From positions 1-39,757 of IMG/VR virus record IMGVR_UViG_3300022933_000001: a stretch of 39,757 bases of DNA; one strand, 5' to 3'. Each line of letters opens with the position of its first letter. The first letter of the stretch is position 1. The notes under the pieces are model-generated. The model was given only the letters and a program-made list of their open reading frames with translations. It did not search any database and was not told the DNA's origin. Positions 6,716-23,080 of this stretch are shown piece by piece. Made by a program: the position numbers and the translations under genes. This DNA is from a virus.

Positions 6716-6717
6716 GA

Positions 6718-6954: not shown

Positions 6955-6956
6955 AA

Positions 6957-7559: not shown

Positions 7560-7577
7560 TTTATTTCCTGCCTCATT

Positions 7578-9950
7578 CTAGTGAAAGAAGTATAAGGACT
7601 TTGTTAGTTGGTTAATGTCTAATGTTCCTGTTGAAAGAAACGGAAGACGTTCGTTGTGGGTATCAGGATATGATTGCCTGATGTCCCTGTCAAATGAAAT
7701 CTGAAGATTATTTTGAAAAGTATCAATCACTACTTCTCGCAACCCCTCAGCTAGGGCAGGACAATCACTCGCATGTGTTGCGAATGAGTCATGCACCATG
7801 GCTAGTGAGTTGATACCCTTAGATTTCATAAGGTTAGTTGTCGTGAGCATGATGCTCGCGTCAAGTGAGTGGATGTAGTTAGGCACGATACCCTTGAGGT
7901 TGTTACGCCTTGAGAGTTTATCGAGAGGGTCACGGTAGTGCGCTTCCTTCCTTATGTTCGAGCCTATTGCTGTGACTACACGACGGCGCACCGTCTGTTT
8001 ATATCCTTGATGCACAGTCATACCTATCGGTGTTGTCCATGATATAACATTGTCTGCATATAAGGCGGGGCGTATCGTGTCCTTCAACCAAGACATTAAC
8101 TCTAATGCTCTCGGCATAAGCTCAGCGATTACACCCCATGTTACCGATGCTAATATCTTACTGTATGTACGCAACTGTTTCTGCATACTCTGTGGTGTTT
8201 CCCCCTCTATGAACCGAGTGTATAGAGTATCTTGGAATAATTGAATCATCGTATAGTACGATGCCCCGTAAGGTACTGACATCACAGCCCGCTTCATTAA
8301 GGCACGGTCAATGCCATACCTCAACAGTCTCAGGTTCTGCTTGTTTGGGTCAGCCTTCAGCCTCCTTGTCACCTCGTCTGCTACCTCTTGGTATATATCA
8401 GCAGGACTACCTAACGGTGTGCAGTTAGTAGCCTCGCCTATGTCCTCATCGCGTATCATTAAAGACATAAGCTGTAGCCCGTTATTACTTCCGTCCATCG
8501 CACAAGGTATGTGTGATAAGAAGTTAGGATTCTCTAGCCACTCAGCAAACTCGAAGCACCACGCTAGGAATTGGAAAGGCTTATCTGCCTCAGCCCAATG
8601 CAGGTAGTCTAATGGGTTGGTCGCGTTCTTCTTTAACGACTCTTGCATCCCTAGCATCTTATCTACCCGACGCTTGTAAGAACCCTTGATGCCCCATAGG
8701 TTTGCGCCGTGTATCAAGAACCACTTGCTACCTTCACCTTGAAAGGTCTTACCCTCTACGAAGTGAAGCAATCCCTTAGCGATGTCATCACCTTGAGGAT
8801 TGAATACCTTCGGTATCGGGTAGGCTCTACCTCTAAAGTCTAAGCTATGTGGGAAGTATATTGCACTTTCCCCTGAAAATTTTTCAGCAGTTTTTATACA
8901 CTCATTTAGCCTGAACCTCCGACCTACATTTAGGTTGTTGGTTGCTCGTACTCTCTGAAGATTTCGGAAGTAATACCCCCTCTCCTTGTCTGTGAAGTCA
9001 GCACTAAACACAGGCTCTGCTAGGAAGTCGCAATTAGGCAAGCCTGCGATGGTGGATTGTTCTTTCCACAGTTGCTTCATCACGTCAAGAACCTTAGTGT
9101 TCACCGCCCAAGCCGTTGATTGTAGTGCGTTCACCCCATCGAATACGGCGGGGCAGTCATCGTAAGTCAGGTCGTCATAGTGGTTACCTTCCTTCGCGTT
9201 AATGAAACCCTTAGTCTGAAACTCCCTAAGTGTGTAGCCTCCTGTGAAGTTGTCCACCCAATCATTAGGTGGTACAACCATTGGCTCATATAACATACCT
9301 CGTGTTGCATCTCTCTTGTAACTTTCCTCTAGCCACTCCTTCATGTCGGGCGTGGGTGCAACAAGACCGATGCGTTTACCGTTCAACACCCGATGGTACA
9401 GGACAATCATTCCTGTATGTTTCTGCATCAACATCAAGGCTGTCATACCTATAGAGATTAAGTCTCCTTTATCCCACCAACGATTGATAATGCCTGCTCG
9501 TCGAGCTTCCCGAAGTATTATCTGTTCCGTGTTTCTATCATTCTCGTGTTTGTTCTCTATCACCTTAGTGCGGAACAGGTCGATGTGATTCTCCTTGAAC
9601 TTCTGTAGTTGATACTCTTGCTGTATCGCTCTACCTATAGCACCTGCGAGTGCCGTGCGCTTACGCTTACGACTAATGCCATCGAGTACCGCCCTTGCTA
9701 TCACCGTGGCTGTAAGCTCAGGCGTAAGCAGTCTGAAGAAAGGCTTAACTTTCTTACCTACCCCTGCACCCTCACCGTCAAGCCAATCAACGATACCTAA
9801 AGACAGAGGTACGATTGCTCTTGATAGCGCGATGCTACCTGTTGCAGTCGTAGTCTCTTGCTCTTTAGCTACACGTTTAGCGTTGCGCTTCGTGCGTCGA
9901 GAAGCACCCGCGATGAGTGCTTCCCGTTCTTGTTCATGTTGCTTAGACAT
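7578..9950 (-). CDS. single-subunit DNA-directed RNA polymerase (T7 gp1-like, ~790 aa)
   Basis: Catalytic motifs MDGSNNGLQ (T7 D537 region) and MVHDSFATH (T7 D812 region). The start is uncertain. ATG 9950 (MSKQHEQ) overlaps the upstream stop by 8 nt. The track start at 9974 is a TTG. Confidence 0.93.
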   Translation of the reverse strand: MSKQHEQEREALIAGASRRTKRNAKRVAKEQETTTATGSIALSRAIVPLSLGIVDWLDGEGAGVGKKVKPFFRLLTPELTATVIARAVLDGISRKRKRTALAGAIGRAIQQEYQLQKFKENHIDLFRTKVIENKHENDRNTEQIILREARRAGIINRWWDKGDLISIGMTALMLMQKHTGMIVLYHRVLNGKRIGLVAPTPDMKEWLEESYKRDATRGMLYEPMVVPPNDWVDNFTGGYTLREFQTKGFINAKEGNHYDDLTYDDCPAVFDGVNALQSTAWAVNTKVLDVMKQLWKEQSTIAGLPNCDFLAEPVFSADFTDKERGYYFRNLQRVRATNNLNVGRRFRLNECIKTAEKFSGESAIYFPHSLDFRGRAYPIPKVFNPQGDDIAKGLLHFVEGKTFQGEGSKWFLIHGANLWGIKGSYKRRVDKMLGMQESLKKNATNPLDYLHWAEADKPFQFLAWCFEFAEWLENPNFLSHIPCAMDGSNNGLQLMSLMIRDEDIGEATNCTPLGSPADIYQEVADEVTRRLKADPNKQNLRLLRYGIDRALMKRAVMSVPYGASYYTMIQLFQDTLYTRFIEGETPQSMQKQLRTYSKILASVTWGVIAELMPRALELMSWLKDTIRPALYADNVISWTTPIGMTVHQGYKQTVRRRVVTAIGSNIRKEAHYRDPLDKLSRRNNLKGIVPNYIHSLDASIMLTTTNLMKSKGINSLAMVHDSFATHASDCPALAEGLREVVIDTFQNNLQISFDRDIRQSYPDTHNERLPFLSTGTLDINQLTKSLYFFH

Positions 9951-10287
9951 TTGATGTGTTCCAAACGTATGCAATCTCTGTGCGCATCATACGTCCTAAC
10001 GTCGATAGCTGTACTAGCTTGCGACGCTTATCCGCAGGGTCGATGACACATTGAATTAAACCTGCACACTCACCGCCTCGTGGGTGGTCATCATCTGAAC
10101 CTAGCAATCGTAGGTATCGTATGATTGAGCCGTGGCTAACACCCACCATATCCATCAGCTCTTTCACAAGCAAAGGGTTAGGGTCGTGTTCCATAACGTG
10201 CAGTAGTAGCGAGACACCTTGAGTCTCCAAGTCTCCACCTGCATACCGACGTATGATGTCGAAGGTCTTAGTTAGATTCTGCATCAT
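9943..10287 (-). CDS. MarR-like winged-helix transcriptional regulator (114 aa)
   Basis: HTH segment LVKELMDMVGVSHGSIIRYLRLL followed by the wing signature GLIQCVIDPADKRRKLVQLSTLG, matching the MarR pattern Glv.r..dp.DrR...v.LT..G. Confidence 0.7.
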   Translation of the reverse strand: MMQNLTKTFDIIRRYAGGDLETQGVSLLLHVMEHDPNPLLVKELMDMVGVSHGSIIRYLRLLGSDDDHPRGGECAGLIQCVIDPADKRRKLVQLSTLGRMMRTEIAYVWNTSNV

Positions 10288-10730
10288 TACTCTGCCCCCA
10301 TGATTGCTACCACACGGTCAGCGTAAGCCTTAGTGTGTTTACGTTTCATGCCATTCCATCCACCGTGGTGGATACGAGCAAGGCTGTGCCAATCCTCGTT
10401 ATGCCACGCCTTATTAGCGTACCGTCGCATATAACTTTCAATCACAACACGCCCCACACTAGGCAACATACAGTCTGCAAAGTCTAAGTCTAGATTGGCA
10501 AACTCCACAGCATCTTGGAAGTATGCTTCAGTTATCTGATACCGCCCCTGCTCACCATGTGAACCCCAAGCCATGTCGTCATTGTTGCTCTCGACTACGC
10601 CGATTGCATTGTAGAAGTCATCAAGCGTAGGCTTGTGTCCTGTTTCATTATGGTAACTCATCCAAATCGTCAGCGTTACCATGCACAATAGTATAAACAT
10701 TGCGCCTGTAAATTCTTGTTTCTTATCCAT
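10287..10730 (-). CDS. lytic transglycosylase (SLT/lysozyme-like) with N-terminal membrane anchor; candidate SAR-type endolysin
   Basis: Hydrophobic N-terminus FTGAMFILLCMVTLTIWMSY. SLT-like motifs VESNNDDMAWGSHGEQGRYQI and IHHGGWNG. SD AGGGAG lies upstream. Confidence 0.68.
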   Translation of the reverse strand: MDKKQEFTGAMFILLCMVTLTIWMSYHNETGHKPTLDDFYNAIGVVESNNDDMAWGSHGEQGRYQITEAYFQDAVEFANLDLDFADCMLPSVGRVVIESYMRRYANKAWHNEDWHSLARIHHGGWNGMKRKHTKAYADRVVAIMGAE

Positions 10731-10732
10731 TT

Positions 10733-10918
10733 TTAATCTCCCTGTTTGGGTGGTTTAGTAGGTATGGCTACCTTCTTTAAGTTTGTTTGTATCGAGCCAT
10801 CAAGTTTTGCAACCGATAGCCAATGCTTGTGGCATAAGTGAAACGTGCCATCGTTACGGTCAGCAACAGAGATGTAATCTCCCTGTTGCCGACAGCGTTT
10901 CCATGAGCAGGTTACGAT
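10733..10918 (-). CDS. possible Cys/His-rich small protein (61 codons) lacking a canonical start codon
   Basis: The reading frame is open from 10942 down to TAA 10733-10735. AGGAG sits 5 nt upstream of an ATC codon at 10918. The peptide contains CSWKRC...HLCHKH. There is no in-frame ATG, GTG or TTG. Confidence 0.3.
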   Translation of the reverse strand: MVTCSWKRCRQQGDYISVADRNDGTFHLCHKHWLSVAKLDGSIQTNLKKVAIPTKPPKQGD

Positions 10919-11124
10919 GCGTTCTCCTGTCGTGCTAAGACTCTATTGTATAGCTCGACGGGTGTTACCCCACAAAGCTCTACAATAGCAACATCGCACA
11001 TACCGTCTTTCAATAGGCGAGACATTACTACATCTTTTGGCATCGTATCCTCAGCCATCGCTGTGATAAACTCGCACCACATCTGTAGCAATGTATCCTT
11101 GTCTATGTTGAAGGTGTTAGTCAT
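10912..11124 (-). CDS. hypothetical early protein (70 aa)
   Basis: ATG ORF whose start overlaps the upstream stop by 1 nt. Operon strand. Confidence 0.6.
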   Translation of the reverse strand: MTNTFNIDKDTLLQMWCEFITAMAEDTMPKDVVMSRLLKDGMCDVAIVELCGVTPVELYNRVLARQENAS

Positions 11125-11405
11125 TACGCCACCTCCGTTGGTTCGTCGTAGCTGACAGACTCCTCGATAAACTCCTCCTCATCATACTCCCAATGAGTAT
11201 CATAGTATAAAAAGCTATCGCCGTTAATATCTTTATGCTCAGCGATTAACCTTATCTGTTCCTCAGCACCTAATTCTTCGATGCGTTCAGCTTCAGCCAT
11301 GCACTCAGCCTCTGTTCCCTCGATGGTCACGGTTTCCTGCATAGTCCAATGAACCACGCGCTCGACGTTGATTGTTATTTCTAACTCTTGTTTTGTTTCT
11401 GACAT
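11124..11405 (-). CDS. highly acidic early protein (93 aa)
   Basis: Strong SD (CAGGAGATTAAAATG). By my count, 28 of 93 residues are D/E against 5 K/R. Confidence 0.65.
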   Translation of the reverse strand: MSETKQELEITINVERVVHWTMQETVTIEGTEAECMAEAERIEELGAEEQIRLIAEHKDINGDSFLYYDTHWEYDEEEFIEESVSYDEPTEVA

Positions 11406-11468
11406 TTTAATCTCCTGTCTTTCGACGGTTAGAGTAAGAGAGTGTCGCTCTCGTAGTTTGTTTGTAGT

Positions 11469-11496
11469 ATCTTAACATATCCTTAGAGTATGTCAA
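11469..11496 (-). promoter_or_regulatory. sigma70-like promoter (TTGACA-16-TAAGAT) upstream of the 93-aa acidic gene
   Basis: Minus-strand read: TCTTGACAtactctaaggatatgtTAAGAT. Confidence 0.55.
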
Positions 11497-11599
11497 GAAG
11501 TTTCTTTAAGAAAAGATAAAAAAGATTTACTAAATAGTTCTTGATTATCTTCAAGGCATCTTTACGATGGGGTTCGTGGTGGCTTTTACCAAGAGGGAA

Positions 11600-11626
11600 G
11601 AAGGGTAAGTGAAAGACCTACCCTTC
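11600..11626 (-). terminator. possible intrinsic terminator or attenuator after the 82-aa early gene
   Basis: An 8-bp stem GAAGGGTA/TACCCTTC with an 11-nt loop. On the - strand it is followed by UUCCCUCUU. Confidence 0.4.
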
Positions 11627-11634
11627 GGTTCTCT

Positions 11635-11883
11635 TTAGTTAAGACCTCCCTTACCTAGCACCACCTCTGTGTATTGTGAATACTTAGTGGTCGTAATCTC
11701 TACCACTCTGAGGAAAGAGTTATTTATGTTTAGTTCCTCTGAGTTTAGCAACTCAAGAAGGTCTGCTAGTATCTGTGTCTCTGACTCACCACTAGATAGT
11801 GGCTTCCAAGTAGTGATGCCACCCTCTACATCGTCGTAGTCATAGACTTCTAAGCGATACATTGTTCCTATGGTTCGTGCCAT
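11635..11883 (-). CDS. hypothetical early protein (82 aa)
   Basis: ATG ORF with 1-nt start/stop overlap with the upstream gene. A hairpin follows it. Confidence 0.6.
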   Translation of the reverse strand: MARTIGTMYRLEVYDYDDVEGGITTWKPLSSGESETQILADLLELLNSEELNINNSFLRVVEITTTKYSQYTEVVLGKGGLN

Positions 11884-12692
11884 TACGCCACCTCCAATGC
11901 TTTGTAGGCTTTACGTCCTTCGCTCTCAGCTTCGTTGATAGCTATCGCCATCATACTTGCCGACCTGTAAGTAGCTCGTAAGGCTTCCCCTTCTGCACCT
12001 GTGAAGATTAACATCACACCTGCAAGCACCTCTTGGAATCGCTCGACTCCTTCGATGTCCATCTTACGGTCACCCCAACCACACGCAAACTCCTCAGCCA
12101 TAACTTTGTCTAGGTAGCTTATGCTTCTCGTGTAAGTATCGGGTTCGTAAGCCATCTCGACCCACACTATCCTATCTCTACCCTCGAATCCGTGTTCCGT
12201 GTTCAGCTTATTAACCTTAGTCTCAAGTGGTTGTTTGAGTTTTGTGTATTCTTTCGATACTTTCTCGAAGTCCTCCCAAGTATGGTCGCAGTTCTGCTTA
12301 ACATACTCAGCTAAGTAGTCCGACTCCTTCTTTACTTCGGCTTTCTTCGCATCATCGCGTTCAGCCTTCGCCTTCGCTATGTCTTGTAGCTTGTCTGCTC
12401 TAACCAAGAAAGCTCGTAGCTTCTTCGGTGTTGCATAGTCCGTGCATCGTATGAGTTTATCATCACACTTTAGTGTAAGGGAAGTTATATAGCTTCGCCA
12501 AGCTTCGGGGTCAGCGACGCAGTAGCTTTGAGTTATTTTAGCATACCCTTCCTTTGAGAAGCGTCGGTAGTACTTATGGTTGCCGTCGGTATCGCGTTCA
12601 TCGTCGTTGGGTGTAGTCCAACCGTCTGCTACTAGCGTATCGTGAATGGAAGTAGCTATCGCTTCTATCCTTATTGTTTCTGATTGTGTCAT
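11883..12692 (-). CDS. hypothetical early protein (269 aa) with a central charged helical segment
   Basis: Strong SD (GCAGGAGATTAAACAAATG) downstream of a sigma70-like promoter. No enzymatic motif recognised. Confidence 0.7.
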   Translation of the reverse strand: MTQSETIRIEAIATSIHDTLVADGWTTPNDDERDTDGNHKYYRRFSKEGYAKITQSYCVADPEAWRSYITSLTLKCDDKLIRCTDYATPKKLRAFLVRADKLQDIAKAKAERDDAKKAEVKKESDYLAEYVKQNCDHTWEDFEKVSKEYTKLKQPLETKVNKLNTEHGFEGRDRIVWVEMAYEPDTYTRSISYLDKVMAEEFACGWGDRKMDIEGVERFQEVLAGVMLIFTGAEGEALRATYRSASMMAIAINEAESEGRKAYKALEVA

Positions 12693-12762
12693 TTGTTTAA
12701 TCTCCTGCCTTACGGCGGTTAGTGAATAGGAAGTTACGTTCTCCCTTAAAGTGTGAGAGCTA

Positions 12763-12791
12763 AGCTTAGCCTAGCCCTCGTTGTTTGTCAA
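12763..12791 (-). promoter_or_regulatory. sigma70-like promoter (TTGACA-17-TAAGCT) upstream of the 269-aa gene
   Basis: Minus-strand read: TCTTGACAaacaacgagggctaggcTAAGCT. Confidence 0.55.
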
Positions 12792-12816
12792 GACATTTAT
12801 CTTGAAAGTTTTGTGT

Positions 12817-12834
12817 GAATTATAATGCCCCCTC
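12817..12834. promoter_or_regulatory. GGGCATTATAA motif copy D (reads on the - strand)
   Basis: The reverse complement is GGGGGCATTATAATTCAC. It overlaps the stop of the 79-aa gene, just upstream of the 12763-12791 promoter. Confidence 0.35.
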
Positions 12835-13059
12835 TTTCAGTAGGTTCAAGTGTATCTCTACTACTTGGTCGATGGTGTAGTCTGTACAGTACTTACCTTT
12901 ACCTCGACCACAATCGTAGTGGTATACTATACCTCTAGATACTAGCTTCTCCATGCGACGCTTCGCCTTAGCCCATGAGTTAGGCTTGTAGAATTTAGAT
13001 TGACAGAATCCTATTCGTATCAATTGTTCCTCGTGTTCTGCGTTGTACTTTCGTGGCAT
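12820..13059 (-). CDS. small basic early protein (79 aa)
   Basis: ATG ORF with 1-nt overlap with the upstream gene. Lys/Arg-rich (AKAKRRMEKL, GRGKGK). Confidence 0.6.
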   Translation of the reverse strand: MPRKYNAEHEEQLIRIGFCQSKFYKPNSWAKAKRRMEKLVSRGIVYHYDCGRGKGKYCTDYTIDQVVEIHLNLLKEGAL

Positions 13060-13448
13060 TACGCTACCCCCTCAAACATTCTAGATATTACCTTACCGTT
13101 ATTATCTAAACCGTCAAACTTTTGGGTTAGCCCTAAGCGGTTTAAGTAAACCCATACCCCTACTTCTGTTAGGTATTGGTGCGCCCCTTGACGTATCCTA
13201 AACGACATCTCCGTTAGCTTGTTAAGCCTGTTAGTTGTCGTAGGTGTATGCCACCCGCAGTTAGATACATATGTGCTATCTACTCGGTATTCTACTATCA
13301 TGTTGTCGTGATACTCGACGTAAAAGGAATTATCAATCCAATCCCTATATAGGTAGGTGTTGTGTCCTAGTTTAGCGCGGTCGCGGTTACCTATGAAGGC
13401 TTTCGCTGATGCGTAGTCCGTTACATTTTCTAATGTTAAGTTACTCAT
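13059..13448 (-). CDS. hypothetical early protein (129 aa)
   Basis: ATG ORF directly downstream of the best sigma70-like promoter in the window. Confidence 0.65.
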   Translation of the reverse strand: MSNLTLENVTDYASAKAFIGNRDRAKLGHNTYLYRDWIDNSFYVEYHDNMIVEYRVDSTYVSNCGWHTPTTTNRLNKLTEMSFRIRQGAHQYLTEVGVWVYLNRLGLTQKFDGLDNNGKVISRMFEGVA

Positions 13449-13505
13449 TTTATTGTTGTATGTTGTATAGCCTTACCGTGCCTTAGTGTTAAGTGTTGAG
13501 GGCTT

Positions 13506-13534
13506 AGTATAAACTAGCCCCCTTTAGTTGTCAA
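13506..13534 (-). promoter_or_regulatory. sigma70-like promoter (TTGACA-17-TATACT) upstream of the 129-aa gene
   Basis: Minus-strand read: TCTTGACAactaaagggggctagttTATACT. Confidence 0.65.
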
Positions 13535-13557
13535 GATATATATCTTGTTTATTTTTT

Positions 13558-13878
13558 TTATGCTTCCCCCTCCATCGCTCTATTAAACTCGCCCACCTCT
13601 GCTAGATAATCCTGAAGTGGTGTACGCTTAGCGACCTCCTCCTTTGCGTCATCTATTAAACAGTTCAGCGCGTGTTCTGCGCTATGGTCTAGCTCGTCAA
13701 GGTCTCGCACCTTACCTAGCTCATCATAGAGGTTAATATCCACCACGTCTCCGCTATCGTCTAGCTCGAAGGATACGCTATGATAGTCGTATAACCCATG
13801 ACAAGGAAACTGTTCCTTAAAGGTGTCAAACTCTGAGCGTCCGACATAATATTTTCCTACTTTATAGGGGCAATCCAT
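13558..13878 (-). CDS. acidic early protein (106 aa), second gene of the early operon
   Basis: The ATG overlaps the upstream stop (TAATG). By my count, 26 of 106 residues are D/E against 10 K/R. Confidence 0.65.
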   Translation of the reverse strand: MDCPYKVGKYYVGRSEFDTFKEQFPCHGLYDYHSVSFELDDSGDVVDINLYDELGKVRDLDELDHSAEHALNCLIDDAKEEVAKRTPLQDYLAEVGEFNRAMEGEA

Positions 13879-14054
13879 TACAGAACCCCCAAATCTTCAG
13901 CTAGTGCCTCTAGTTCTTCAGCGACAAACACGGGGTCTCCCGTCATGTTGTCGCGGATAAACTCCGTGATGCGCGGGTCGCTATGCACTACTTCCGAGAA
14001 GTCTGCGCAGGTGTTACCCTCGAATATCGAGGCGATTAAGTTAATGTTATTCAT
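13878..14054 (-). CDS. small acidic protein (58 aa), first gene of the early operon (below the ORF-track size cut-off)
   Basis: GGAGGT SD lies 4 nt upstream of ATG 14054. The peptide reads MNNINLIASIFEGNTCADFSEV...AEDLGVL. The stop overlaps the next ATG. Confidence 0.5.
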   Translation of the reverse strand: MNNINLIASIFEGNTCADFSEVVHSDPRITEFIRDNMTGDPVFVAEELEALAEDLGVL

Positions 14055-14608
14055 GTGTACCTCCTGAGTACTTGGTTAATTGTGGAAGGCTTAACGTTTT
14101 CACGGCGCGGTTGCCTATCTTCCGCGCGACAATCGGGGCGGTGTTTGGTCTTTAGACCCTACTGCACTACCCCTTAATTGTTTCTATTTTCACAATTTGA
14201 TATACCGCTAGAATCAACGCTTGCCGAGAGCGTCCGTCCTTAGCGGTTAGCTTTATGGTACACGGCATAGACCGAATCTCTGTACTAGGACTTAATCAGT
14301 CCTAAGGGTCCTAGCGCTATCGCTTCCCTCTACCCTAACCTTTGGGGTCTGCTTGGTTTACCATGATTTTGTTCTTTATCCTTAGTCCGTTTTAGCCTGC
14401 CGTCCTGCACGGAGTATCAGAGGTTCATTCGATATTTTTAGCGGTTCGGCTCTAGCCTACCTCTTGCTAATGGGGTTCTCGCAAAAGCTTGCCCTATCGA
14501 GGAACATGATATTTTACTTTAACGTTTTCAGTTACAGCTTAGTTTCACTTATTCCTAGCGTCTCGTTCTTCCTAATTGTTAATGAGCTTCTGTCTTTCTC
14601 TTGCCCCT

Positions 14609-14637
14609 ATCCTATCCCCGCCCTCTTGCTTTGTCAA
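14609..14637 (-). promoter_or_regulatory. sigma70-like early promoter (TTGACA-17-TAGGAT)
   Basis: Minus-strand read: cCTTGACAaagcaagagggcggggaTAGGAT. It lies about 550 nt upstream of the first early gene. Confidence 0.5.
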
Positions 14638-14793
14638 GGGTATTTAGTTAAAACTTTTTAGGGGTCTAGCGTATGGCAGGGTCGGTTTTATCCGAATGCC
14701 TAGTGGCTAGTCCGTCCTAGATGTTTCACGTGGAACACTTGACTTAGCAGGGCGAGAATTTGAAAGAGCTATGAGGTTGGGTTATCCCTTTCT

Positions 14794-14822
14794 CATACCC
14801 CTATTCTATCATGACTTGTCAA
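14794..14822 (-). promoter_or_regulatory. possible additional early promoter (good -35, poor -10)
   Basis: Minus-strand TCTTGACAAG is present, but no convincing -10 lies at 16-18 nt. Confidence 0.25.
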
Positions 14823-14851
14823 GAGTGCAACCCCTAAAATCAAGGTATTTT

Positions 14852-14871
14852 AAATAGGGCATTATAATTCC
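14852..14871. promoter_or_regulatory. GGGCATTATAA motif copy A (candidate phage-RNAP promoter or operator)
   Basis: AAATAGGGCATTATAATTCC. The core is quasi-palindromic. Confidence 0.4.
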
Positions 14872-14881
14872 AAATAGCTAG

Positions 14882-14901
14882 AAATAGTGCATTATAAGTG
14901 C
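14882..14901. promoter_or_regulatory. GGGCATTATAA motif copy B
   Basis: AAATAGTGCATTATAAGTGC, exactly 30 bp after copy A. Confidence 0.4.
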
Positions 14902-15146
14902 ATAGCCTATCTCGCACACAATCGAGTACAGGGCAGTCGTAAGTACAGTCAGACAAAGGACTTAGGACGATTGACGTAAGTCTAGTGTTTACAAGGGGTT
15001 AGGACTGAATCTGCGTTCGTCCTTAATGTGGGTACTCAGTAGGGTTACGCGTCAAGGCTCTTAGAACGGCTCTAAATGCCCTTAGAGCGCAAGCGTAACC
15101 CTAGTGCCTGTAACGACTTAGGACGGCTAAAACAGAGGACGCAGGA

Positions 15147-15306
15147 GGGCAGGGCAGGCTACTGTTGAGACTCAATCTCATTAAGAGTCGAGACAATGAC
15201 TGTTGAGACCTAGTCTCATTAAGACACCCCCGCCTGCCTGCCTGTACTCTTGAGACTCAATCTCATTAAGGCAAGAGCCGTGTTGTTGCGACAGAGTCTC
15301 AACAAG
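15147..15306. repeat. cluster of four hairpin-forming repeat units flanked by GC-rich complementary arms
   Basis: Direct units CTGTTGAGACTCAATCTCATTAAG (15162-15185), CTGTTGAGACCTAGTCTCATTAAG (15200-15223) and CTCTTGAGACTCAATCTCATTAAG (15247-15270). One inverted degenerate unit lies at 15282-15306. The arms are GGGCAGGGCAGGC (15147-15159) and CGCCTGCCTGCCTG (15231-15244). Confidence 0.85.
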
Positions 15307-15500
15307 ACCCTGCGGGGCTACCCCTATGGGGGGAACGGCGCGTTCCATCCATATATATACCCGCTCACATTTTTCTGCAATTTTTGGCGGTCACTCCATA
15401 CCCTTTAGGAAAACAAAACAAACCCGATGGGAACCCACTAGCTCCAAGGTATTTCCCTGTGAGCGAGGCGGGGAGCGAGAATAACTCTCAGCTCATGGAG

Positions 15501-15520
15501 GGACTTATAATGCCCAATAG
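15501..15520. promoter_or_regulatory. GGGCATTATAA motif copy C (reads on the - strand)
   Basis: The reverse complement is CTATTGGGCATTATAAGTCC. It lies about 250 nt downstream of the terL stop. Confidence 0.4.
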
Positions 15521-15768
15521 ATTCTGTGAAACGAAGTATATTTCCTCATAATCACATTACCTTTTTACTTTTTCTTTAGGGGAGGTGGTGGGAGGATTAC
15601 TCTAAGGTACTATAGAGTACCTACTACCTACTTCCTTTTCTCCCCTAACAGGGAACTAAGGGGCTGTAGTGACTCTCTATTATACTTAGAGAACTCTGTC
15701 TACCGCGCATATGGTCTAGCGTACCACACTTTTTTGTCTTCTCTAGAGGAAGGGAAGAAATATTTTTC

Positions 15769-17433
15769 TTACATCCATGAGGACTTGTTATTGGTATATC
15801 CAACAGCATTCTCCATGAACTTATCTAGCTCTATCTGTAGTCTTTCAGCCTTATCTTCCTGCATACGCTCTTCTACGTCTTGCCCTACAGCTTCTACCCA
15901 ATAGTGAGCTGCCATAGACATAACTTCTAACCTGTCGTCGTGAGCTAATGCTCCTCTAGCTGTGGTTATTCTTGTGAGTTGGTGGAAGAGCCTATACTGA
16001 GGAGCTTTCTCAGGAGGTAGGTGCCTAGTAGAGCTATAATCATTCTCGATTACTTCAGGAGATATAACGATTCTGTGTTGATTTAATAGAGGTTCTAAGG
16101 TCTCAATGATTCGCCGCTCCTTCTGAGTGGAGTGTCGTACCTCAGAGAGGGTGACAGGGTATATCTTCTTAAGGTATGGTGTGAGTAGTTCATTGAACAT
16201 ACCATCGCCGAAGTTAGATTCCACCTGTATCTCTTTGACCTTGTACTTCTTCGCTAGTTCTGCTAGAGCAGTCAGGGTTTCCGTAGAGTATCCCCCCGCT
16301 ACCCCTGAGCATTCGTGGACATACAGGAAACCGTTGAGCATCGACATGATACAGTAACCTGTTTCGTCACTACCACGACCTGAAGGGTCGATGGTCATTA
16401 CAGTACCACGGTATGGTATAAAGTCACCATCAACAGCGAGGGGTCTATAGAAGTAGTCCCCGCTAAAACCGACAGATGGTAGGTCCTTTATGACCCTCTC
16501 AGCACTATTGGAGTGTATGACACGCTCAGGTGCTACCTCAAGGTCTATCTCCATAACAATGAAGTCCTGTAGCTTGAGAGGATACCTATTAGCATCCGAC
16601 AAGCTAGGGTCAAGCATGAATTGCAACGCAAAGCCTGAACGACCATAGGATAGCTCACGTTCCACTAGGTCATCCTCATCGAAACGCTTAGGGTCTACAG
16701 GTTCCCCCTCTAATGACGGGTCCTCTGTAATCTTATCGAGGATATAAGGGGCTAAGTGAGAACCGTATGCGGCTACTTTGTCGCTTTTGGGATATCTTCC
16801 TGTCCACACACGAGGTATGTAACCCCTAGCAGGTAAGACTTTGTATAAAGACATCTCTGTTTGGTACGTCCCTAGATACCTTACCTGTCCATTAGGCTTG
16901 AGAATGGAGTCAAATTCCTTCACGAGGTTACCTAACTTGTCCCTCATGCCCTGAGTTTCGCTATTATTTAGGGACTCCACGTCGTCTGCCACAATCAGGT
17001 CCGCACGAGAACCTGTTAGCTGTCCTGTGATTCCGACCGCCTTCACAGAGGGGGCGTGTGCCGCAGGGGCAGGACCAACATCGAAGGCTATCTTGGAATC
17101 TCTCTGCTCAGGTCTAGCCTTCAGATGCTCCAATATTGGCATCTCATTGATTAGACGTTGAGTGAAGGTAGAGAAGTCATCCGAGCGGTTCTTAGATGCT
17201 GACACCACTAGGATGTTTAGAGATGGGTCTAGTAACAGCCGCCAACAGACGTAGGCAGAGGTTAGGTATGACTTACCTACACCGCGGTACGCAAGAATGA
17301 TTTGTCTTCGGGGTCCGTCCTGTAGATATTCAGATATATCATACTGTACAGGCGTAGGCTCGGGGAGACCTAAATGCTCCCATGCCATGTATACGAAATT
17401 CCTAAAGTCCCTCAGCTCTTTAGGGATTTCCAT
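15769..17433 (-). CDS. terL: terminase large subunit (T7 gp19-like, 554 aa)
   Basis: Walker A-like YRGVGKSY, Walker B LIVADDVES, and a C-terminal nuclease region with acidic motifs. The size is typical. Confidence 0.93.
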   Translation of the reverse strand: MEIPKELRDFRNFVYMAWEHLGLPEPTPVQYDISEYLQDGPRRQIILAYRGVGKSYLTSAYVCWRLLLDPSLNILVVSASKNRSDDFSTFTQRLINEMPILEHLKARPEQRDSKIAFDVGPAPAAHAPSVKAVGITGQLTGSRADLIVADDVESLNNSETQGMRDKLGNLVKEFDSILKPNGQVRYLGTYQTEMSLYKVLPARGYIPRVWTGRYPKSDKVAAYGSHLAPYILDKITEDPSLEGEPVDPKRFDEDDLVERELSYGRSGFALQFMLDPSLSDANRYPLKLQDFIVMEIDLEVAPERVIHSNSAERVIKDLPSVGFSGDYFYRPLAVDGDFIPYRGTVMTIDPSGRGSDETGYCIMSMLNGFLYVHECSGVAGGYSTETLTALAELAKKYKVKEIQVESNFGDGMFNELLTPYLKKIYPVTLSEVRHSTQKERRIIETLEPLLNQHRIVISPEVIENDYSSTRHLPPEKAPQYRLFHQLTRITTARGALAHDDRLEVMSMAAHYWVEAVGQDVEERMQEDKAERLQIELDKFMENAVGYTNNKSSWM

Positions 17434-17651
17434 TATGCTTCTTTAGCTTCTGTGAAGGGAAGAGCCTTAACTAAGTTTAGCATAGGTTTACTCTCTTCCA
17501 CTACTACAGTCACATCGTTATCCTTCAAGAACTTAACAGCTACAGAGATTTCAGCCGACGTTGCTTCGCCTGAAGCAATGCGGTCTAAAAGCTCGGAGGC
17601 TACGTCTACATGAAGTTTTTCTAAAAGGGACTTGATATCGGGGTTACTCAT
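17433..17651 (-). CDS. terS: terminase small subunit candidate (T7 gp18-like, 72 aa)
   Basis: Internal ATG 17651 gives MSNPDIKSLLEKLHVDVASELLDRI.... The stop overlaps the terL ATG (TAATG). The longer track ORF from 17789 runs antisense into the neighbouring gene and is rejected. Confidence 0.55.
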   Translation of the reverse strand: MSNPDIKSLLEKLHVDVASELLDRIASGEATSAEISVAVKFLKDNDVTVVVEESKPMLNLVKALPFTEAKEA

Positions 17652-17660
17652 AGTTATAAT
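17632..17660 (+). promoter_or_regulatory. near-consensus sigma70-like promoter facing the late (+) operon (TTGATA-17-TATAAT)
   Basis: Plus-strand read: cTTGATAtcggggttactcatagtTATAAT. The -35 lies inside the terS coding start. The -10 lies in the 55-bp divergent intergenic region. Confidence 0.5.
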
Positions 17661-17706
17661 GTGCGAACTACACCCCTGTAGTATACCACAACTCAATCGA
17701 ATCTCT

Positions 17707-18720
17707 ATGGGTATTACCCCCGAACAATTCAACAAAAATGTCGAAGACATGAGAGTTGAAATGAAACGTCTAAAATCTGAGGTACGCAAGGCGTATAATA
17801 AGTTATCTAAACAGCAGTCTACAGAGGCTTTGATTCAGGAAGCCGTAGACGATGCTCTCGCAGGCATTAAGCTGTACCCTGCCCCGACCCTACGAAAAGA
17901 GAAAAAGACCAAGAGAAGCCCTAGGAACGCTCCTGAAGCGTGGCTGTGTCTCTCGGATTGGCAGGTAGGGAAGGTGACAGAGACCTATAACTCCAAGATA
18001 GCGGCTAGACGTATCCATCAGCTAACCAATCAGGCGGCTGAACTACTCCGTAAAGAGAAGCCCAAGGTCCTACATATCGTCCTGCAGGGTGATATGGTAG
18101 AAGGTGAGGCTATCTTCGCGGGGCAGCCCTTCGAGATTGACGATGACCTATGGACACAATCAGTCAAGTCAGTACCCAAGCTAATTACTCATGTCATTAC
18201 CAAACTATCCCCTCTCGTCCCTAAAATTAAAGTGGCAGCAGTTCATGGAAACCACGGTCGTTCAGGCTTTAAGGGAGGAGGACATAGCAGAAAGACAAAT
18301 TGGGATTTGGTATCTTACAATACTGCCAAACTTATGTGTCAGGTTGCGGGGGTTAAGAATATGTCTTGGGACATTTCTGAAACGTGGTACGTTAAGCAGA
18401 AAGTAGCAGGAAACGGCATCCTATGCGTGCATGGGGACCAAGTTGGGGGTGGAAACCCCTTCAACGTGAATGCAATATTCAAGAAAGCTATGGGGTGGGC
18501 GCATAATATAGAGGATTGGAAGTTCCTTAGCGTTGGACACCACCACACTCACGCATCAGGAGAACTAAATCGTGATGTATACTTCTTCCTAAGCGGTAGC
18601 CCTGAGTCAGGGAACGAGTTTGCTAGAGAAAGATTAGCTCAAGGAGGACTAGCAATGCAGCGAATGTGCTTCTTCGACCGTAAAGGACTAATTTCAGAGC
18701 ATTTATTGAAGATGAACTAA
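17707..18720 (+). CDS. calcineurin-like metallophosphoesterase (337 aa) with a charged coiled-coil-like N-terminal extension
   Basis: Motifs appear in order: LSDWQVG (variant of DxH), QGDMVEGE (GDxxE/D), VHGNHG (GNH), VHGD and GHHHTH (GHxH). The track start at 17632 is a TTG that coincides with a -35 box. Confidence 0.78.
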   Translation: MGITPEQFNKNVEDMRVEMKRLKSEVRKAYNKLSKQQSTEALIQEAVDDALAGIKLYPAPTLRKEKKTKRSPRNAPEAWLCLSDWQVGKVTETYNSKIAARRIHQLTNQAAELLRKEKPKVLHIVLQGDMVEGEAIFAGQPFEIDDDLWTQSVKSVPKLITHVITKLSPLVPKIKVAAVHGNHGRSGFKGGGHSRKTNWDLVSYNTAKLMCQVAGVKNMSWDISETWYVKQKVAGNGILCVHGDQVGGGNPFNVNAIFKKAMGWAHNIEDWKFLSVGHHHTHASGELNRDVYFFLSGSPESGNEFARERLAQGGLAMQRMCFFDRKGLISEHLLKMN

Positions 18721-18908
18721 TGGATAAAGAGTCTTTTCCTAATATAACTAAAAAACAAGTCGAGGCACTTGTTGAACTAATCCCAAAAGAATTACCCTCT
18801 CTACTAGATACTGACAGAGAGATATGGTATAATGTCGGAAGGCAGTCTGTGGTAGACCTCTTCCTTGAGATATACCGTATTCAGAACGAGTCTATTCTAG
18901 ATAAATAA
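18720..18908 (+). CDS. hypothetical protein (62 aa)
   Basis: The ATG overlaps the upstream stop (TAATG). Late-operon strand. Confidence 0.5.
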   Translation: MDKESFPNITKKQVEALVELIPKELPSLLDTDREIWYNVGRQSVVDLFLEIYRIQNESILDK

Positions 18909-18910
18909 CT

Positions 18911-19012
18911 ATGTCAGCTTTTTCAACTTATATTAAAGATTTCGGCACAAAGAATGCCGCTACTATCCTTTGGTTTACCTTAGGCTTACTACTTGGGGCG
19001 TTTGTACTCTAA
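18911..19012 (+). CDS. possible 33-aa single-pass membrane peptide
   Basis: ATG 18911 gives MSAFSTYIKDFGTKNAATILWFTLGLLLGAFVL. The stop overlaps the next ATG (TAATG). It is too short for the ORF track. Confidence 0.35.
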   Translation: MSAFSTYIKDFGTKNAATILWFTLGLLLGAFVL

Positions 19013-19197
19013 TGTGTATGGGTAGCGCACCAAAGATGCCTGAGATTCCTGAGGCTCCACCTGCTCCTGAGCCACCTGAACCGCTTGCCCGTAAGGTAGA
19101 AAACCCTGAAGCGGCAGGTTCAGATGAGTTTGGAAGACGTAGGCGAGGTAAAGGTTCTCTAGTTATCCCACGCAGGGGATTAAGTATACCTAGCTAA
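19012..19197 (+). CDS. small Pro/Glu-rich, Arg-tailed protein (61 aa)
   Basis: ATG 19012 gives MCMGSAPKMPEIPEAPPAPEPPEPL...GRRRRGKG. The stop overlaps the portal ATG. The track start at 18970 is a non-ATG extension. Confidence 0.45.
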   Translation: MCMGSAPKMPEIPEAPPAPEPPEPLARKVENPEAAGSDEFGRRRRGKGSLVIPRRGLSIPS

Positions 19198-20756
19198 TGC
19201 CTGAAGCAGACGTAGTAACCGCACAGGTATGGTATGAGAAGCAGCAGGGTAACCGTGCGCCATACTTAGACCGAGCGCGAGAGGCTTCAAAGCTAACCAT
19301 CCCAACGCTTGTAACAGCAGAGGGAGATGTGTCAAGTCAAAAGCTTAAGACCCCTTATCAGAGCGTAGGCGCGAGGGGTGTTAATAACCTCAGCTCCGCG
19401 CTACTGATGAGCTTACTTCCACCTAACGCTCCCTTCTTCCGTCTAGCACTAGATGAGAAAGCGAAGGCAGAGATGGAAGGTGTTGAACAGGTAAAGACTG
19501 AAGTAGCCACCGCACTCTCTGAGATGGAACGTAATATCCATAAAGAGATTGAGGGTAATAACTTCCGAGTAGGATTGTTTGAAGCCCTGAAGCACCTGAT
19601 TGTTTCAGGTAACGTACTACTCCAAGTACCTAAGGAAGGACACATGAGAGTGTTCCACTTAGACCGTTTCGTGATTACACGAGACCCGATGGGAAATGTC
19701 GAGCGTATCGTAATTAAAGAAGATATAGCTAAAGACCAAGTACCCGAAGATGCCAAGCCATCAGAAACACCCTCAGACGTTGATACTGTCAGCCTGTATA
19801 CCTCCATAACTACCATTGATTCTAAAACTGTTGAAGTGTATCAAGAGATTGGCGGCATCCGTTTGGGGGGTTCTGAAGGCACTTACCCTAAAGATAAGAA
19901 CCCATTCTTGGCTCTGCGCCTTAACCGCATTGATGGTGAGGATTATGGTCGTGGTTATGTCGAGGAATACTTAGGAGACTTAGAGTCTCTTGAAGGATTG
20001 ACTCAAGCTATTGTTGAAGGCTCAGCCGCGTCAGCTAAGTTACTATTCTTAGTAGCTCCGAACGGCACAACAAGAAAGTCTCGCATAGCCTCTGCGGCTA
20101 ACGGGGCTATCATTGACGGCTCAGCAGGTGATGTATCTGTTCTACAGACACAGAAACACGCTGACTTCCGTGTAGCCTTTGAGACTATCAATCAGATTCA
20201 AGAACGCTTGAACTACGCATTCATGCTCACTGAAGCAGCTATCCGCAAGGCGGAGAGAGTAACTGCTGAGGAAGTACGTTTAGTGACGCAAGCCATCGAG
20301 CGTCAGCTCGGAGGAATCTACTCAGTTCTGTCACAAGAGTTCCAATTACCCCTAGTTAAGATTGTCATGCAACGTATGCAGTCTGCAGGACGCTTACCTA
20401 AGATGCCTAAGAATATGATTCACCCGATGGTGGTGACAGGTATCGAAGCATTAGGAAGAGGTAACGACCTCAATAAACTAGACAGCTTTGTTGCAGGTAT
20501 CGGACAGATACTTGGACCTGAAGCTGTACAACAGTTTGTTAATATATCAGAGTACCTAGACCGTAGAGCGGCGGCACTTGGTATAGATACTAAGGGACTA
20601 ATCAAGTCACAGGAAGAGCTACAACAAGAAGCTCAACAAGCCCAACAGCAGGCAATGATGCAGCAGTTAGGTCCTAAGGCGATGGATGCAGTTACTGACT
20701 CCGCGCAACTCCAACAACAACAACAAAACCAAGCCCCTCCACAAGAGGGCGAATAA
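19197..20756 (+). CDS. portal (head-to-tail connector) protein, T7 gp8-like (519 aa)
   Basis: YQSVGARGVNNLSSALLMSLLPP matches the conserved gp8 N-terminal motif. The position and size fit, and the C-terminus is Gln-rich. Confidence 0.9.
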   Translation: MPEADVVTAQVWYEKQQGNRAPYLDRAREASKLTIPTLVTAEGDVSSQKLKTPYQSVGARGVNNLSSALLMSLLPPNAPFFRLALDEKAKAEMEGVEQVKTEVATALSEMERNIHKEIEGNNFRVGLFEALKHLIVSGNVLLQVPKEGHMRVFHLDRFVITRDPMGNVERIVIKEDIAKDQVPEDAKPSETPSDVDTVSLYTSITTIDSKTVEVYQEIGGIRLGGSEGTYPKDKNPFLALRLNRIDGEDYGRGYVEEYLGDLESLEGLTQAIVEGSAASAKLLFLVAPNGTTRKSRIASAANGAIIDGSAGDVSVLQTQKHADFRVAFETINQIQERLNYAFMLTEAAIRKAERVTAEEVRLVTQAIERQLGGIYSVLSQEFQLPLVKIVMQRMQSAGRLPKMPKNMIHPMVVTGIEALGRGNDLNKLDSFVAGIGQILGPEAVQQFVNISEYLDRRAAALGIDTKGLIKSQEELQQEAQQAQQQAMMQQLGPKAMDAVTDSAQLQQQQQNQAPPQEGE

Positions 20757-20760
20757 AAAC

Positions 20761-21504
20761 ATGGGTGAAACTCAATCAGTAGAAGTTCCTTTCGAGGAAA
20801 CAGGCTCTTTAAGTCCTGAACAACAAGCTAACGAAGCTCAAGCTGCCGAAGTTATTTCGGAAGTGGCTGAGACTGAAGCAGCGGCAGACCGTCCTGATTA
20901 CCTTCCTGAGAAGTTCAATTCTCCTGAAGAGATGGCGGCAGCCTATAAGGAACTAGAAGGCAAGTTAGGTACTCCAACAGAGGAAGCCCCCGCGATTGAG
21001 GGGACCGTTAGTAATAATGATATGCAGTTCTACTCTGACCGCTTTGCTGAGAATGGTCAGCTAGAGGAATCAGACTATGCAGGTCTAGAAGCTAAGGGCA
21101 TATCTAAAGACATGGTGGATAACTACATTGCAGGGCAGCAGGCAATGATTACCCAACACACACAGACTGTATTCAGTCAAGTCGGAGGCGAAGAGCAATA
21201 CACAGCTATGACTCAATGGGCTTCCGAAACATTCTCCGCTGAAGAGGTTGCCGTGTTTGACGCGGCTGTTAATTCAGGAGATATGAACCAAACAATGAGT
21301 GCGGTAAAGGGCTTACAAGCTCGTTACAAAATGGAGAACGGCACTCAACCAAACCTAATGCAGGGTAAGACAGGCGGCTCAGGAGTTATAGCTTATTCCT
21401 CTCTAGCAGAAATGAAGAGAGACATGGCTAATCCTAAGTACGCTCAAGACTCTGCATTCCGCGAGACTGTAAAACGCAAGCTCGCAAACTCAAACATCAT
21501 GTAA
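20761..21504 (+). CDS. scaffolding protein, T7 gp9-like (247 aa)
   Basis: Acidic, Ala/Glu/Gln-rich protein between the portal and capsid genes. ATG 20761 lies 5 nt after the portal stop. The track start at 20686 overlaps the portal gene. Confidence 0.7.
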   Translation: MGETQSVEVPFEETGSLSPEQQANEAQAAEVISEVAETEAAADRPDYLPEKFNSPEEMAAAYKELEGKLGTPTEEAPAIEGTVSNNDMQFYSDRFAENGQLEESDYAGLEAKGISKDMVDNYIAGQQAMITQHTQTVFSQVGGEEQYTAMTQWASETFSAEEVAVFDAAVNSGDMNQTMSAVKGLQARYKMENGTQPNLMQGKTGGSGVIAYSSLAEMKRDMANPKYAQDSAFRETVKRKLANSNIM

Positions 21505-21624
21505 GTGATGTTGCAGAACTAAGTGTAAGTGTTTAGCCCTTTACGAAGGATAACTCTACAACCTAAGCAGTGTTCTATTTCTAACTAATTTTTCTTTTAA
21601 CGACATAACCCACAGGAGTTTTAA

Positions 21625-22650
21625 ATGTCATTACCACTATCACGCTTGGGTGATGCAGCAGGAGATGGGACGAATACAAACGCCCTATTCTTGAAGCAAT
21701 TCTCAGGAGAAGTCATTACAGCGTTCGAAACATCGAACATAATGATGCCTCTACACACAGTCCGTACTATCTCACAAGGTAAGTCGGCACAATTCCCCGT
21801 CATCGGTACTACTAACGCGCAGTACCACACCCCTGGAAATTCTCTTATCGAGACTGACCCTGCGGGCGGCGCGTTTGACAAGTTTAAGCACAACGAGCGT
21901 CTAATCCACATTGATGATTTGCTTGTCTCAACTGCCTTTATTGACAGTTTAGATGAGGCTAAGAATCACTATGATTACCGTTCAGAGTATAGTCGCAAGA
22001 TGGGCTATGCTCTATCTAAACGCGCTGACGAACATCTACTATCAGTAATTGCAGAAGCTTCCCAAGCGACAGCAACTGCTCCGCAAGCTGCGGGTGGTGG
22101 TATTGTTGAAATCGGCACACACGCTACAGGTGCAGCAGATAGTGATATTACATCAGCAGCGTTGGTTTCAGCTCTGTTCGAAGCGGCTTCAAAAATGGAT
22201 ATCGCAGGTATCCCTGATGAAGACCGTTATATTGTAATGAACCCTACATTATACTACAACCTAATCAGTAATGGTTCAGTAGGATTTGACATCACTACTA
22301 CTGTTGCTAACTCCGACATCGGCGGCTCAGGCTTCGGTTCAGGTAAGGTTCCAATGATTGCAGGTTTTGAAATCTACAAGACTGCTCACTTACCAACTGT
22401 GGACCAAGTAGGCGGCGCAGATACAATCTATGAAGGTGCTAACAACACTTACACCACTGATGCAGCAACTGCAAAGCTTAAAGGTGTAATATTCCATAAG
22501 TCAGCCGTTGGAACTGTAAAGCTTCGTGACTTGTCAATGGAAGCTGAATACCAAATCGAGAGACAAGGTACGCTGATGGTAGCTAAGTATGCTATGGGTC
22601 ACGGAATGCTCCGTCCTGAAGCTGCTTACTCACTTGTAAACGCTACTTAA
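21625..22650 (+). CDS. major capsid protein, T7 gp10-like (341 aa)
   Basis: ALFLKQFSGEVITAFE...VRTISQGKSAQFPVIG closely parallels the T7 gp10 N-terminal region. Strong SD (ACAGGAGTTTTAAATG). Confidence 0.95.
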   Translation: MSLPLSRLGDAAGDGTNTNALFLKQFSGEVITAFETSNIMMPLHTVRTISQGKSAQFPVIGTTNAQYHTPGNSLIETDPAGGAFDKFKHNERLIHIDDLLVSTAFIDSLDEAKNHYDYRSEYSRKMGYALSKRADEHLLSVIAEASQATATAPQAAGGGIVEIGTHATGAADSDITSAALVSALFEAASKMDIAGIPDEDRYIVMNPTLYYNLISNGSVGFDITTTVANSDIGGSGFGSGKVPMIAGFEIYKTAHLPTVDQVGGADTIYEGANNTYTTDAATAKLKGVIFHKSAVGTVKLRDLSMEAEYQIERQGTLMVAKYAMGHGMLRPEAAYSLVNAT

Positions 22651-22669
22651 TACTAGCTATTATTTTTGG

Positions 22670-22689
22670 GGGGTATCTTTTGATGCCCC
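22670..22689 (+). terminator. hairpin immediately downstream of the major capsid gene (terminator or mRNA-stabilising element)
   Basis: GGGGUAUC-UUUU-GAUGCCCC forms 8 bp including one G-U pair, which is valid only on the + transcript. It is not followed by a U tract. The position matches that of T7 T-phi. Confidence 0.35.
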
Positions 22690-22707
22690 TCATTCCTACA
22701 CTAAACT

Positions 22708-23079: not shown

Positions 23080-23080
23080 C

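Follow-up and report, generated by a model that had tools for sequence, protein, structure and literature searches.

In bacteriophage T7, the concatemer junction is composed of right-end unique DNA with phiOR, a 160-bp terminal repeat, the CJ pause site, CCTAAAG short repeats, the promoters A0, phiOL, and A1–A3, and a leader running to gene 0.3; in the T7 record, the order after the repeat is leftward promoter A0, phiOL, A1, A2, A3. The packaging protein gp18 recognises PacB and gp19 cuts at PacC (PMC9860248). The role of the ATCTGTT-type class II pause signal in T7 has been described (10.1101/2021.01.11.426313, PMC3276506), and an interaction of the paused T7 polymerase–lysozyme complex with gp18 and gp19 has been proposed to start maturation and packaging (PMC3276506). 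Here, a region free of open reading frames (ORFs) in the IMG/VR virus record IMGVR_UViG_3300022933_000001 (39,757 nt, i.e., the whole stretch of DNA analysed, henceforth called the window) was compared with T7 and related phages. The region spans positions 14055–15768 on the minus strand, between the stop codon of terL and the first early gene, and, judged from its sequence signals, is very probably the T7-type concatemer junction of a T7-like (Autographiviridae-type) marine podophage, ordinary for its family.

The terminal repeats of six reference phages were located by exact match of both record ends. In T7, ATAAAAATCTGAGTGACTA abuts TCTCACAG at the start of the repeat, and the end CCCT is followed by ATCTGTTACAG. 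The corresponding sequences are GAAAAATCTGAGAGGGTA abutting TCTCATG, with the end CCCT followed by ATCTGTACG, in RSB2 (214-bp repeat); GAAAAATCTGAATGGTCA abutting CCTCTCA, with the end ATCTGTC followed by CCTATCTGTAAG, in gh-1 (216 bp); and ATAATTTTGTGAAGGGGTA abutting GCTACTAG, with the end CCCC followed by ATCTGTTCG, in Syn5 (237 bp). In these four phages, the right repeat begins at exactly the base after the pre-repeat motif. SP6 (174 bp) has no clear motif and shares the C-run and the TCTGTT boundary, its repeat ending in GGGCTA followed by TCTGTTCG. In LUZ100 (244 bp), whose ends were mapped with nanopore rapid-kit reads (PMC10134795), the motif ends 10 nt before the annotated repeat, and there is no ATCTGT. 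Counted by hand, a C-run starts at about +25 to +29 of the repeat in all six phages (+25 in Syn5; CCCCCATAGGGGG in T7), and the ATCTGTT pause signal immediately follows the repeat in T7, RSB2, gh-1, Syn5, and SP6.

The gap at 14055–15768 is exceptional for the genome of the window, being five times longer than any other gap between genes (the next-largest gene-free gap is at most 340 nt by simple gene calls). It lies where the earlier note had placed it relative to the T7 map: the T7-type packaging genes terS and terL are adjacent on the minus strand (15769–17651), and the minus-strand order continues with the gap, the early genes, the RNA polymerase, the primase/helicase, and the DNA polymerase. 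Matches to the RNA polymerase and replication module were PHROG 414 (E = 1e-193), PHROG 239 (E = 2e-185), and PHROG 17 (E = 3e-144). The best tblastn matches of terL were all T7-like “DNA maturase B” proteins of Roseobacter, Pelagibacter, Pseudomonas, and Ralstonia podophages; the closest cultured relatives are the Roseobacter CRP phages (58% identical), and identity to the RSB-type and LUZ100 proteins is 54–56%. At the nucleotide level, the whole gap region gave no blastn match against cultured phages.

Small protein genes missed by the ORF criteria could in principle hide in the gap. Equivalent places carry annotated genes in RSB2 (ORF51, ORF52), LUZ100 (gp54-56), and T7 (gene 19.5), deposited relatives annotate small genes after terL, and ORFs of 25–65 aa occur on both strands of 14055–15768, the longest on either strand having 65 aa. 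Against such genes, the nine longest of these ORFs had no PHROG match, and Pfam returned no above-threshold family for them and one sub-threshold chance match only. The gap ORFs are not kept in the three closest relatives (L001–L003, see below), and a 55-aa ORF at 15181–15348 crosses the palindromic repeats described below. When the terL-proximal 411 nt were aligned with three relatives, variable columns were distributed 26/30/26 over the codon positions, i.e., without three-base periodicity, and the indels had lengths of 1, 2, 13, 20, and 22 nt. This stretch is considered truly non-coding because codon periodicity is absent and the indels are not multiples of three. Hidden small genes are hence very unlikely, and the claim of the earlier note that no credible ORF lies between terL and the first early gene was borne out.

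A terL search of IMG/VR yielded 80 loci (labelled L001 onwards); motif counts were made over 34 non-redundant loci. The terL products of L001–L003 are 92–94% identical to that of the window. The gap after terL measures 1.4–2.0 kb in L001–L003 and L005 and is shorter in L004 and L006–L008. Downstream of terL, a single-copy pre-repeat motif was found (Table 1), whose core is AAAAATGTGAGCGGGTA (15374–15358, minus strand); the conserved minus-strand stretch 15389–15350 reads CGCCAAAAATTGCAGAAAAATGTGAGCGGGTA followed by TATATATG. The conserved A-rich ...CTGAGnGnnTA motif that abuts the right repeat is thus present in the window. A weight matrix built from the 34 unique relative sites scored 15350–15389 at 38 bits, and no other site in the genome reached 8 bits. 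Since the motif is single-copy, it was regarded as a dedicated signal and not as a general promoter. It occurs downstream of terL in 34 non-redundant marine relatives, always 450–900 nt after the gene, is kept in L001–L008, and is recognisable where terL is only 58–60% identical. With the motif as a short blast query, matches lay close to the right end in records of Roseobacter CRP, Pelagibacter HTVC, Prochlorococcus P-SCSP1, and Ralstonia phages. In the openly accessible literature searched for the motif string and for pacB, the motif was not described. It is a probable terminase recognition or cleavage signal. It ends with GGGTA at 15362–15358, and the left genome end is therefore predicted at 15357 ± 2, reading to lower coordinates.

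Two further signals define the predicted direct terminal repeat of about 220 bp, with its left end as given above and its right boundary predicted at about 15138 ± 2. In 34/34 non-redundant loci, the C-run begins between +25 and +28, counted from the predicted left end. At the far side, TCTGTTTT is the only TCTGTT within the next 650 nt of the window, and its equivalent in L001 stands at +223. Across the non-redundant loci, TCTGTT was found at +190 to +230 in eight, while its frequency elsewhere in the region would predict 0.27 (p = 6e-10). The same boundaries are bracketed by sequence conservation: colinearity with the window extends to 14710 in L001 and only to 15350 in L002 and L003, where similarity restarts at 15128; in L003, the resumed similarity covers most of the leader. 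The block at 15093–15128, directly after TCTGTTTT, is taken as the putative start of the left-end unique DNA.

The form of the assembly fits such a repeat. Bases 1–127 of the window equal bases 39631–39757 exactly, leaving a unit of 39630 bases, and the overlap lies inside the tail-fibre gene. This 127-nt end overlap is what a k-mer assembly leaves when it is closed into a circle, and does not represent a biological repeat; in a circular assembly of this kind a collapsed terminal repeat is therefore expected. The suggestion of the earlier note that the assembler had collapsed a direct terminal repeat within the region is thus supported by the homology of the signals (motif, C-run, TCTGTT) together with the circular assembly, in which the repeat would be present in one copy.

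If the phage used headful packaging, or some other mechanism that does not involve a short exact terminal repeat, the conserved motif would be only a pac site or a promoter. The terminal repeat was not directly observed, and the motif is laid out like the promoter of a single-subunit RNA polymerase (AT-rich, with a specific core and TATA), both of which are compatible with such a mechanism. It is nevertheless highly improbable, as terL clusters with T7-type maturases, the motif exactly abuts the repeat in four phages of known repeat, it is single-copy and in this respect unlike a general phage promoter, and the spacing of the C-run and TCTGTT matches that of known repeats.

Several observations weigh against a T7-type junction. 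The sequence was present in 24 DNA runs and one RNA run, all as assembled contigs; those from 24/24 DNA runs had flat depth and offered no read-level support for termini. In run X1, a contig of 39137 nt with one flat depth value covers the whole genome minus 493 nt of tail-fibre tandem repeats, and it breaks in those repeats, not in the gap. The right boundary is the weakest point, because the window signal at +222 reads CTCTGTTTT, with C in place of the A of the strict ATCTGTT, and because TCTGTT is missing from the comparable position in L002, L003, and many other relatives; a search for strict ATCTGT as right boundary found none in the window or in most relatives. The junction is 1.7 kb long and thus longer than that of T7, and the morphogenesis arm is inverted relative to the T7 plan. 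Furthermore, a promoter scan of 13800–16000 was, as a whole, not above chance (5 promoters found vs 2.9 ± 1.8 expected). Of the sigma70-like promoters claimed earlier, a TTGACA-17-TAGGAT element and a second TTGACA lie on the early-gene strand as consensus matches. The positions, motifs, spacing, and conservation described above are observed, and cuts, pausing, promoter activities, and the exact repeat length are inferred.

Table 1 Coordinates of features in and around the predicted concatemer junction
Feature	Position	Strand	Evidence or remark
terS	17651–17433	minus	72 aa from ATG; PHROG 891, E = 1e-14
terL	15769–17433	minus	PHROG 38, E = 3e-115
Hairpin with T-run, terminator-like	15737–15758	plus	Consensus match only; next to terL stop
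TACGCTAGACC motif	15713–15723	minus	About 45 nt after terL stop; kept in L001–L003 and L006–L008
Small hairpin CTCTA-N7-TAGAG	15675–15691		Stem kept via two-sided change (CCCTA..TAGGG) in L001 and L002
GGGCATTATAAG motif copy	15500–15515	minus	Right-end unique DNA; in a 20-nt insertion absent from L001–L003
Pre-repeat motif CGCCAAAAATTGCAGAAAAATGTGAGCGGGTA	15358–15389	minus	Single-copy; corresponds to the sequence directly before the right repeat of T7, RSB2, gh-1, and Syn5
Predicted direct terminal repeat, about 220 bp	15138–15357	minus	One copy in circular assembly; inferred from shared signals
C-run CCCCCCATAGGGG (CCCCCC)	15328–15333	minus	Starts at 15333, i.e., +25 of predicted repeat
Four copies of a 26-nt unit with palindromic core TGAGAC-N3-GTCTCA	15160–15306		Only such sites in the genome
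TCTGTTTT	15129–15136	minus	+222; resembles class II pause signal ATCTGTT
Block CCGTCCTAAGTCGTTACAGGCACTAG...	15093–15128	minus	92% identical in L002 and L003; directly after TCTGTTTT
Two tandem GGGCATTATAA-type motifs, 30 nt apart	14857–14902	plus	Position recalls T7 leftward A0 and phiOL
Second TTGACA	14817–14822	minus	Early-gene strand; consensus match only
Sigma70-like promoter TTGACA-17-TAGGAT	14609–14637	minus	Faces early genes; consensus match only
Leader before first early gene	14055–14381	minus	87% identical in L003; ends in AGGAGG (14061–14066) and ATG 14054
First early gene	13878–14054	minus	ATG at 14054, AGGAGG at 14061–14066
MarR-like transcriptional regulator, 114 aa	9943–10287	minus	PHROG 9665, E = 1e-10; Pfam MarR_2, E = 0.003 (weak)
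Single-subunit RNA polymerase	9974–7578	minus	Part of T7-like module

Compared with T7, the region of the window shares its position between terL and the first early gene, the pre-repeat sequence (ATAAAAATCTGAGTGACTA then TCTCAC in T7, GAAAAATGTGAGCGGGTA then TATATA in the window), the C-run at about +25 (CCCCCATAGGGGG and CCCCCCATAGGGG, respectively), a TCTGTT sequence at the known or predicted far boundary of the repeat, CTAAG-type short motifs on both sides, and, downstream, host-type promoters that in the window are candidates. In contrast to T7, there is no nucleotide similarity beyond the short signals, the boundary signal is CTCTGTT instead of ATCTGTT, the predicted repeat holds four palindromic 26-nt units that T7 does not have, and the junction of about 1.7 kb is without a recognisable T7-type promoter consensus. 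The likeness extends to RSB2 and gh-1, where the motif abuts the repeat and the C-run and the ATCTGT boundary are present, and to Syn5 with its abutting motif, its C-run, and its CCCC followed by ATCTGTT. RSB2, gh-1, and LUZ100 differ from the window in host, GC content, and their unidirectional genomes. The ends of CRP-114 and P-SCSP1b are not defined because their records have no terminal redundancy. In P-SCSP1, terL is on the strand opposite to the motif. In P-SCSP1b (L086/L087, OM416764.1 36500–37821), the motif is on the plus strand and terL with its adjoining gene on the minus strand, an inversion that differs from that of the window.

The predicted repeat contains an array of short repeats that differs among relatives. 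In the window, it consists of the four palindromic units listed in Table 1, and L001 carries an array of the same palindromic TGAGAC units. Other arrays occupy the same place in L002 (about ten CCTAACAG units and three 24-nt units), in L003 (seven CTTTGCAACATCCTAGC units, a TTTGCAACATCCTAGC repeat), and in L005 and L006–L008 (TTTGCAAC-type units), and a distant clade carries TTTGCACCA at the place of the array. In this distant clade (L012–L080), the predicted repeat and the DNA behind it (+60 to +410 from the predicted left end) contain clade-specific elements at fixed positions, namely TTTGCACCA at about +68, GGCAACAGTTA at about +122, TCTCTATTGTTTTC between +235 and +370, and TAACTGTTTACA between +355 and +410.

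The palindromes could form an operator or origin array for the MarR-like regulator, for terS, or for a replication initiator, in which case the region would primarily be a control region or a replication origin. Four 15-bp palindromes are clustered at regular spacing and occur nowhere else in the genome, and the gene directly upstream of that for the RNA polymerase encodes a regulator that weakly matches MarR. T7-like phages also use near-end promoters as secondary origins, which likewise counts in favour of this explanation. However, terS is identical or one residue apart among L001, L002, and L003, which nonetheless carry three different arrays, and L002 and L003 have no palindromes despite a MarR-like protein that is 96–98% identical in their contigs, with the helix-turn-helix stretch unchanged. 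In these relatives, the repeat arrays were not found to covary with either protein; they track neither, because the proteins are near-identical while the arrays differ. The arrays thus appear to resemble the fast-evolving short repeats that surround the T7 repeat, rather than specific operators. An operator or origin array is therefore considered unlikely, and it could hold alongside a T7-type junction without replacing it.

It is also rather doubtful, though conceivable, that the repeat is a hotspot that swaps whole short-repeat arrays between near-identical genomes, with a function that is new compared to T7, or that late expression is tied to concatemers. Under a hotspot, the arrays might serve as decoys or targets of host defence, in the control of genome entry, or as primers for a hairpin-based duplication of the repeat. 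As for late expression, transcription from the outward promoter-like motifs next to the repeat could reach the inverted late arm only after concatemers have joined the ends; if this were true, part of late expression would depend on concatemer formation.

As an alternative or addition to a junction, the earlier note had proposed a structured non-coding RNA as the product of the region or of part of it, and several observations speak for this: the region is long and non-coding, a 367-nt contig of metatranscriptome run X8 is identical to 14354–14720, one small hairpin (15675–15691) keeps its stem through a two-sided change, and the leader (14381–14055) is 87% conserved in L003. The covariance-model search (Rfam/Infernal) gave no match at the gathering score across the whole window and none at E ≤ 1 for 13900–15900, and no tRNA or tmRNA was found. 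Fold z-scores, computed in 150-nt sliding windows, averaged −1.1 (plus) and −1.3 (minus) and were like those of coding controls (−0.6/−1.3 and −0.5/−0.4). The lowest values fell on the palindromic repeats and were equal on both strands, as DNA symmetry would predict. The “many hairpins” noted earlier hence reduce to four palindromic DNA repeats at 15160–15306 as the real symmetry. Coverage by run X8 was about 21% for the gap and about 23% for terL or the exonuclease gene, and thus not denser in the gap; no further RNA runs with the sequence were found. The comparison with relatives for covariation yielded the one small hairpin, and close relatives have unrelated sequence over most of the region. 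A structured RNA as main product is thus barely probable.

The remaining features of the presumed junction lie in the unique DNA on both sides of the predicted repeat. The right-end unique non-coding DNA (15768–15358) is about 410 nt long. The terminator-like plus-strand hairpin next to terL would, according to its consensus, stop transcription running antisense into terL. The GGGCATTATAAG copy in this part looks inserted as a unit (within 15495–15520), and another copy directly follows the stop codon of a gene that ends at 12820. On the early-gene side, TTGACA-17-TAnnnT elements recur between early genes, near 13520, 12780, and 11480, which supports putative early promoters for the host polymerase. 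Two ATTATAA motifs were found in the left-end unique DNA. The motif GGGCATTATAA, which had been put forward as a repeated phage-promoter-like motif, is truly repeated, with three copies in the gap region and one at 12820–12830; its direction is ambiguous because the ATTATAAT core is palindromic. As a phage promoter, GGGCATTATAA is no more than a candidate, given four copies, none of them before the late genes, the palindromic core, and one copy in a window-specific insertion. As another candidate for a phage promoter, GAGTGGCTAGAG (three occurrences) was rejected, its contexts being unrelated and inside genes. Of the dispersed heptamers reported before, an enrichment of CTAAG/CTTAG was recovered (12 vs 5.4 expected, p = 0.01), albeit a weak one; motifs of this type occur in the left-end unique DNA.

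Autographiviridae have been described as unidirectional (PMC10438801). Of the Autographiviridae plan, the window has the single-subunit RNA polymerase and the T7-like replication module, and its genes do not all lie on one strand. The exonuclease–portal–capsid–tail-fibre arm is on the plus strand at 17708–37024 and on through the window end to about 1230, and minus-strand genes occupy 1130–17651. The divergent joint at 17651/17708 is kept in L001–L003, and the independent X1 contig is colinear over 1–3000 and 12000–19000. A near-consensus sigma70-type TTGATA-17-TATAAT, read by eye, lies at 17632–17660 (plus strand) in the first terS codons. It faces the exonuclease ATG at 17708, so that transcription of the late arm may begin at a host-type promoter. 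With its regulator directly upstream of the RNA polymerase gene, the window matches the temperate-like T7 relatives that have been discussed in connection with LUZ100; the window proteins that were scanned included no integrase. An early-region protein (10287–10730, minus) contains a Destabilase (lysozyme-like) domain (Pfam, E = 1e-7), and besides the exonuclease at 17708–18720 (PHROG 284) there is a second one at 1548–2294, minus (PHROG 107). At 38242–38560 and 37875–38130, the 947-aa tail-fibre gene, which crosses the window end, contains three to four tandem copies of an 84-nt repeat as well as a 123-nt duplication; the Logan contig of run X1 breaks exactly at these tail-fibre repeats.

Taking the region as a T7-type junction, its origin and use may be outlined as follows, largely by analogy to T7. 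The assembler would have closed a linear genome into a circle and merged the two terminal repeats into one stretch, giving the minus-strand order, from terL, of right-end unique DNA, AAAAATGTGAGCGGGTA, a repeat of about 220 bp, TCTGTTTT, and left-end unique DNA. In the infected cell, replication would yield head-to-tail concatemers with one repeat per junction, and the small terminase subunit would recognise the signal beside the repeat. The phage RNA polymerase, on crossing the junction, would pause at the TCTGTT-type signal and help to recruit the terminase. The large subunit would then cut at both repeat boundaries, and the repeat would be duplicated so that each virion DNA end carries a copy. 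After injection, the host RNA polymerase would start at the TTGACA promoters, leading to expression of the early genes.

For this genome, the likely start of the map would thereby be fixed and the largest non-coding stretch explained, with the junction marking the site that would control packaging, early transcription, and end duplication. The comparison further provides a rule for locating the physical ends of circular metagenomic T7-like assemblies without reads, i.e., a single-copy motif, a C-run at +25, and TCTGTT near +200 to +220. The one point on which experiments may prove worthwhile is the fast turnover of arrays within the predicted repeat. Across the family, the same end signals appear to be present from T7 to uncultured marine lineages.

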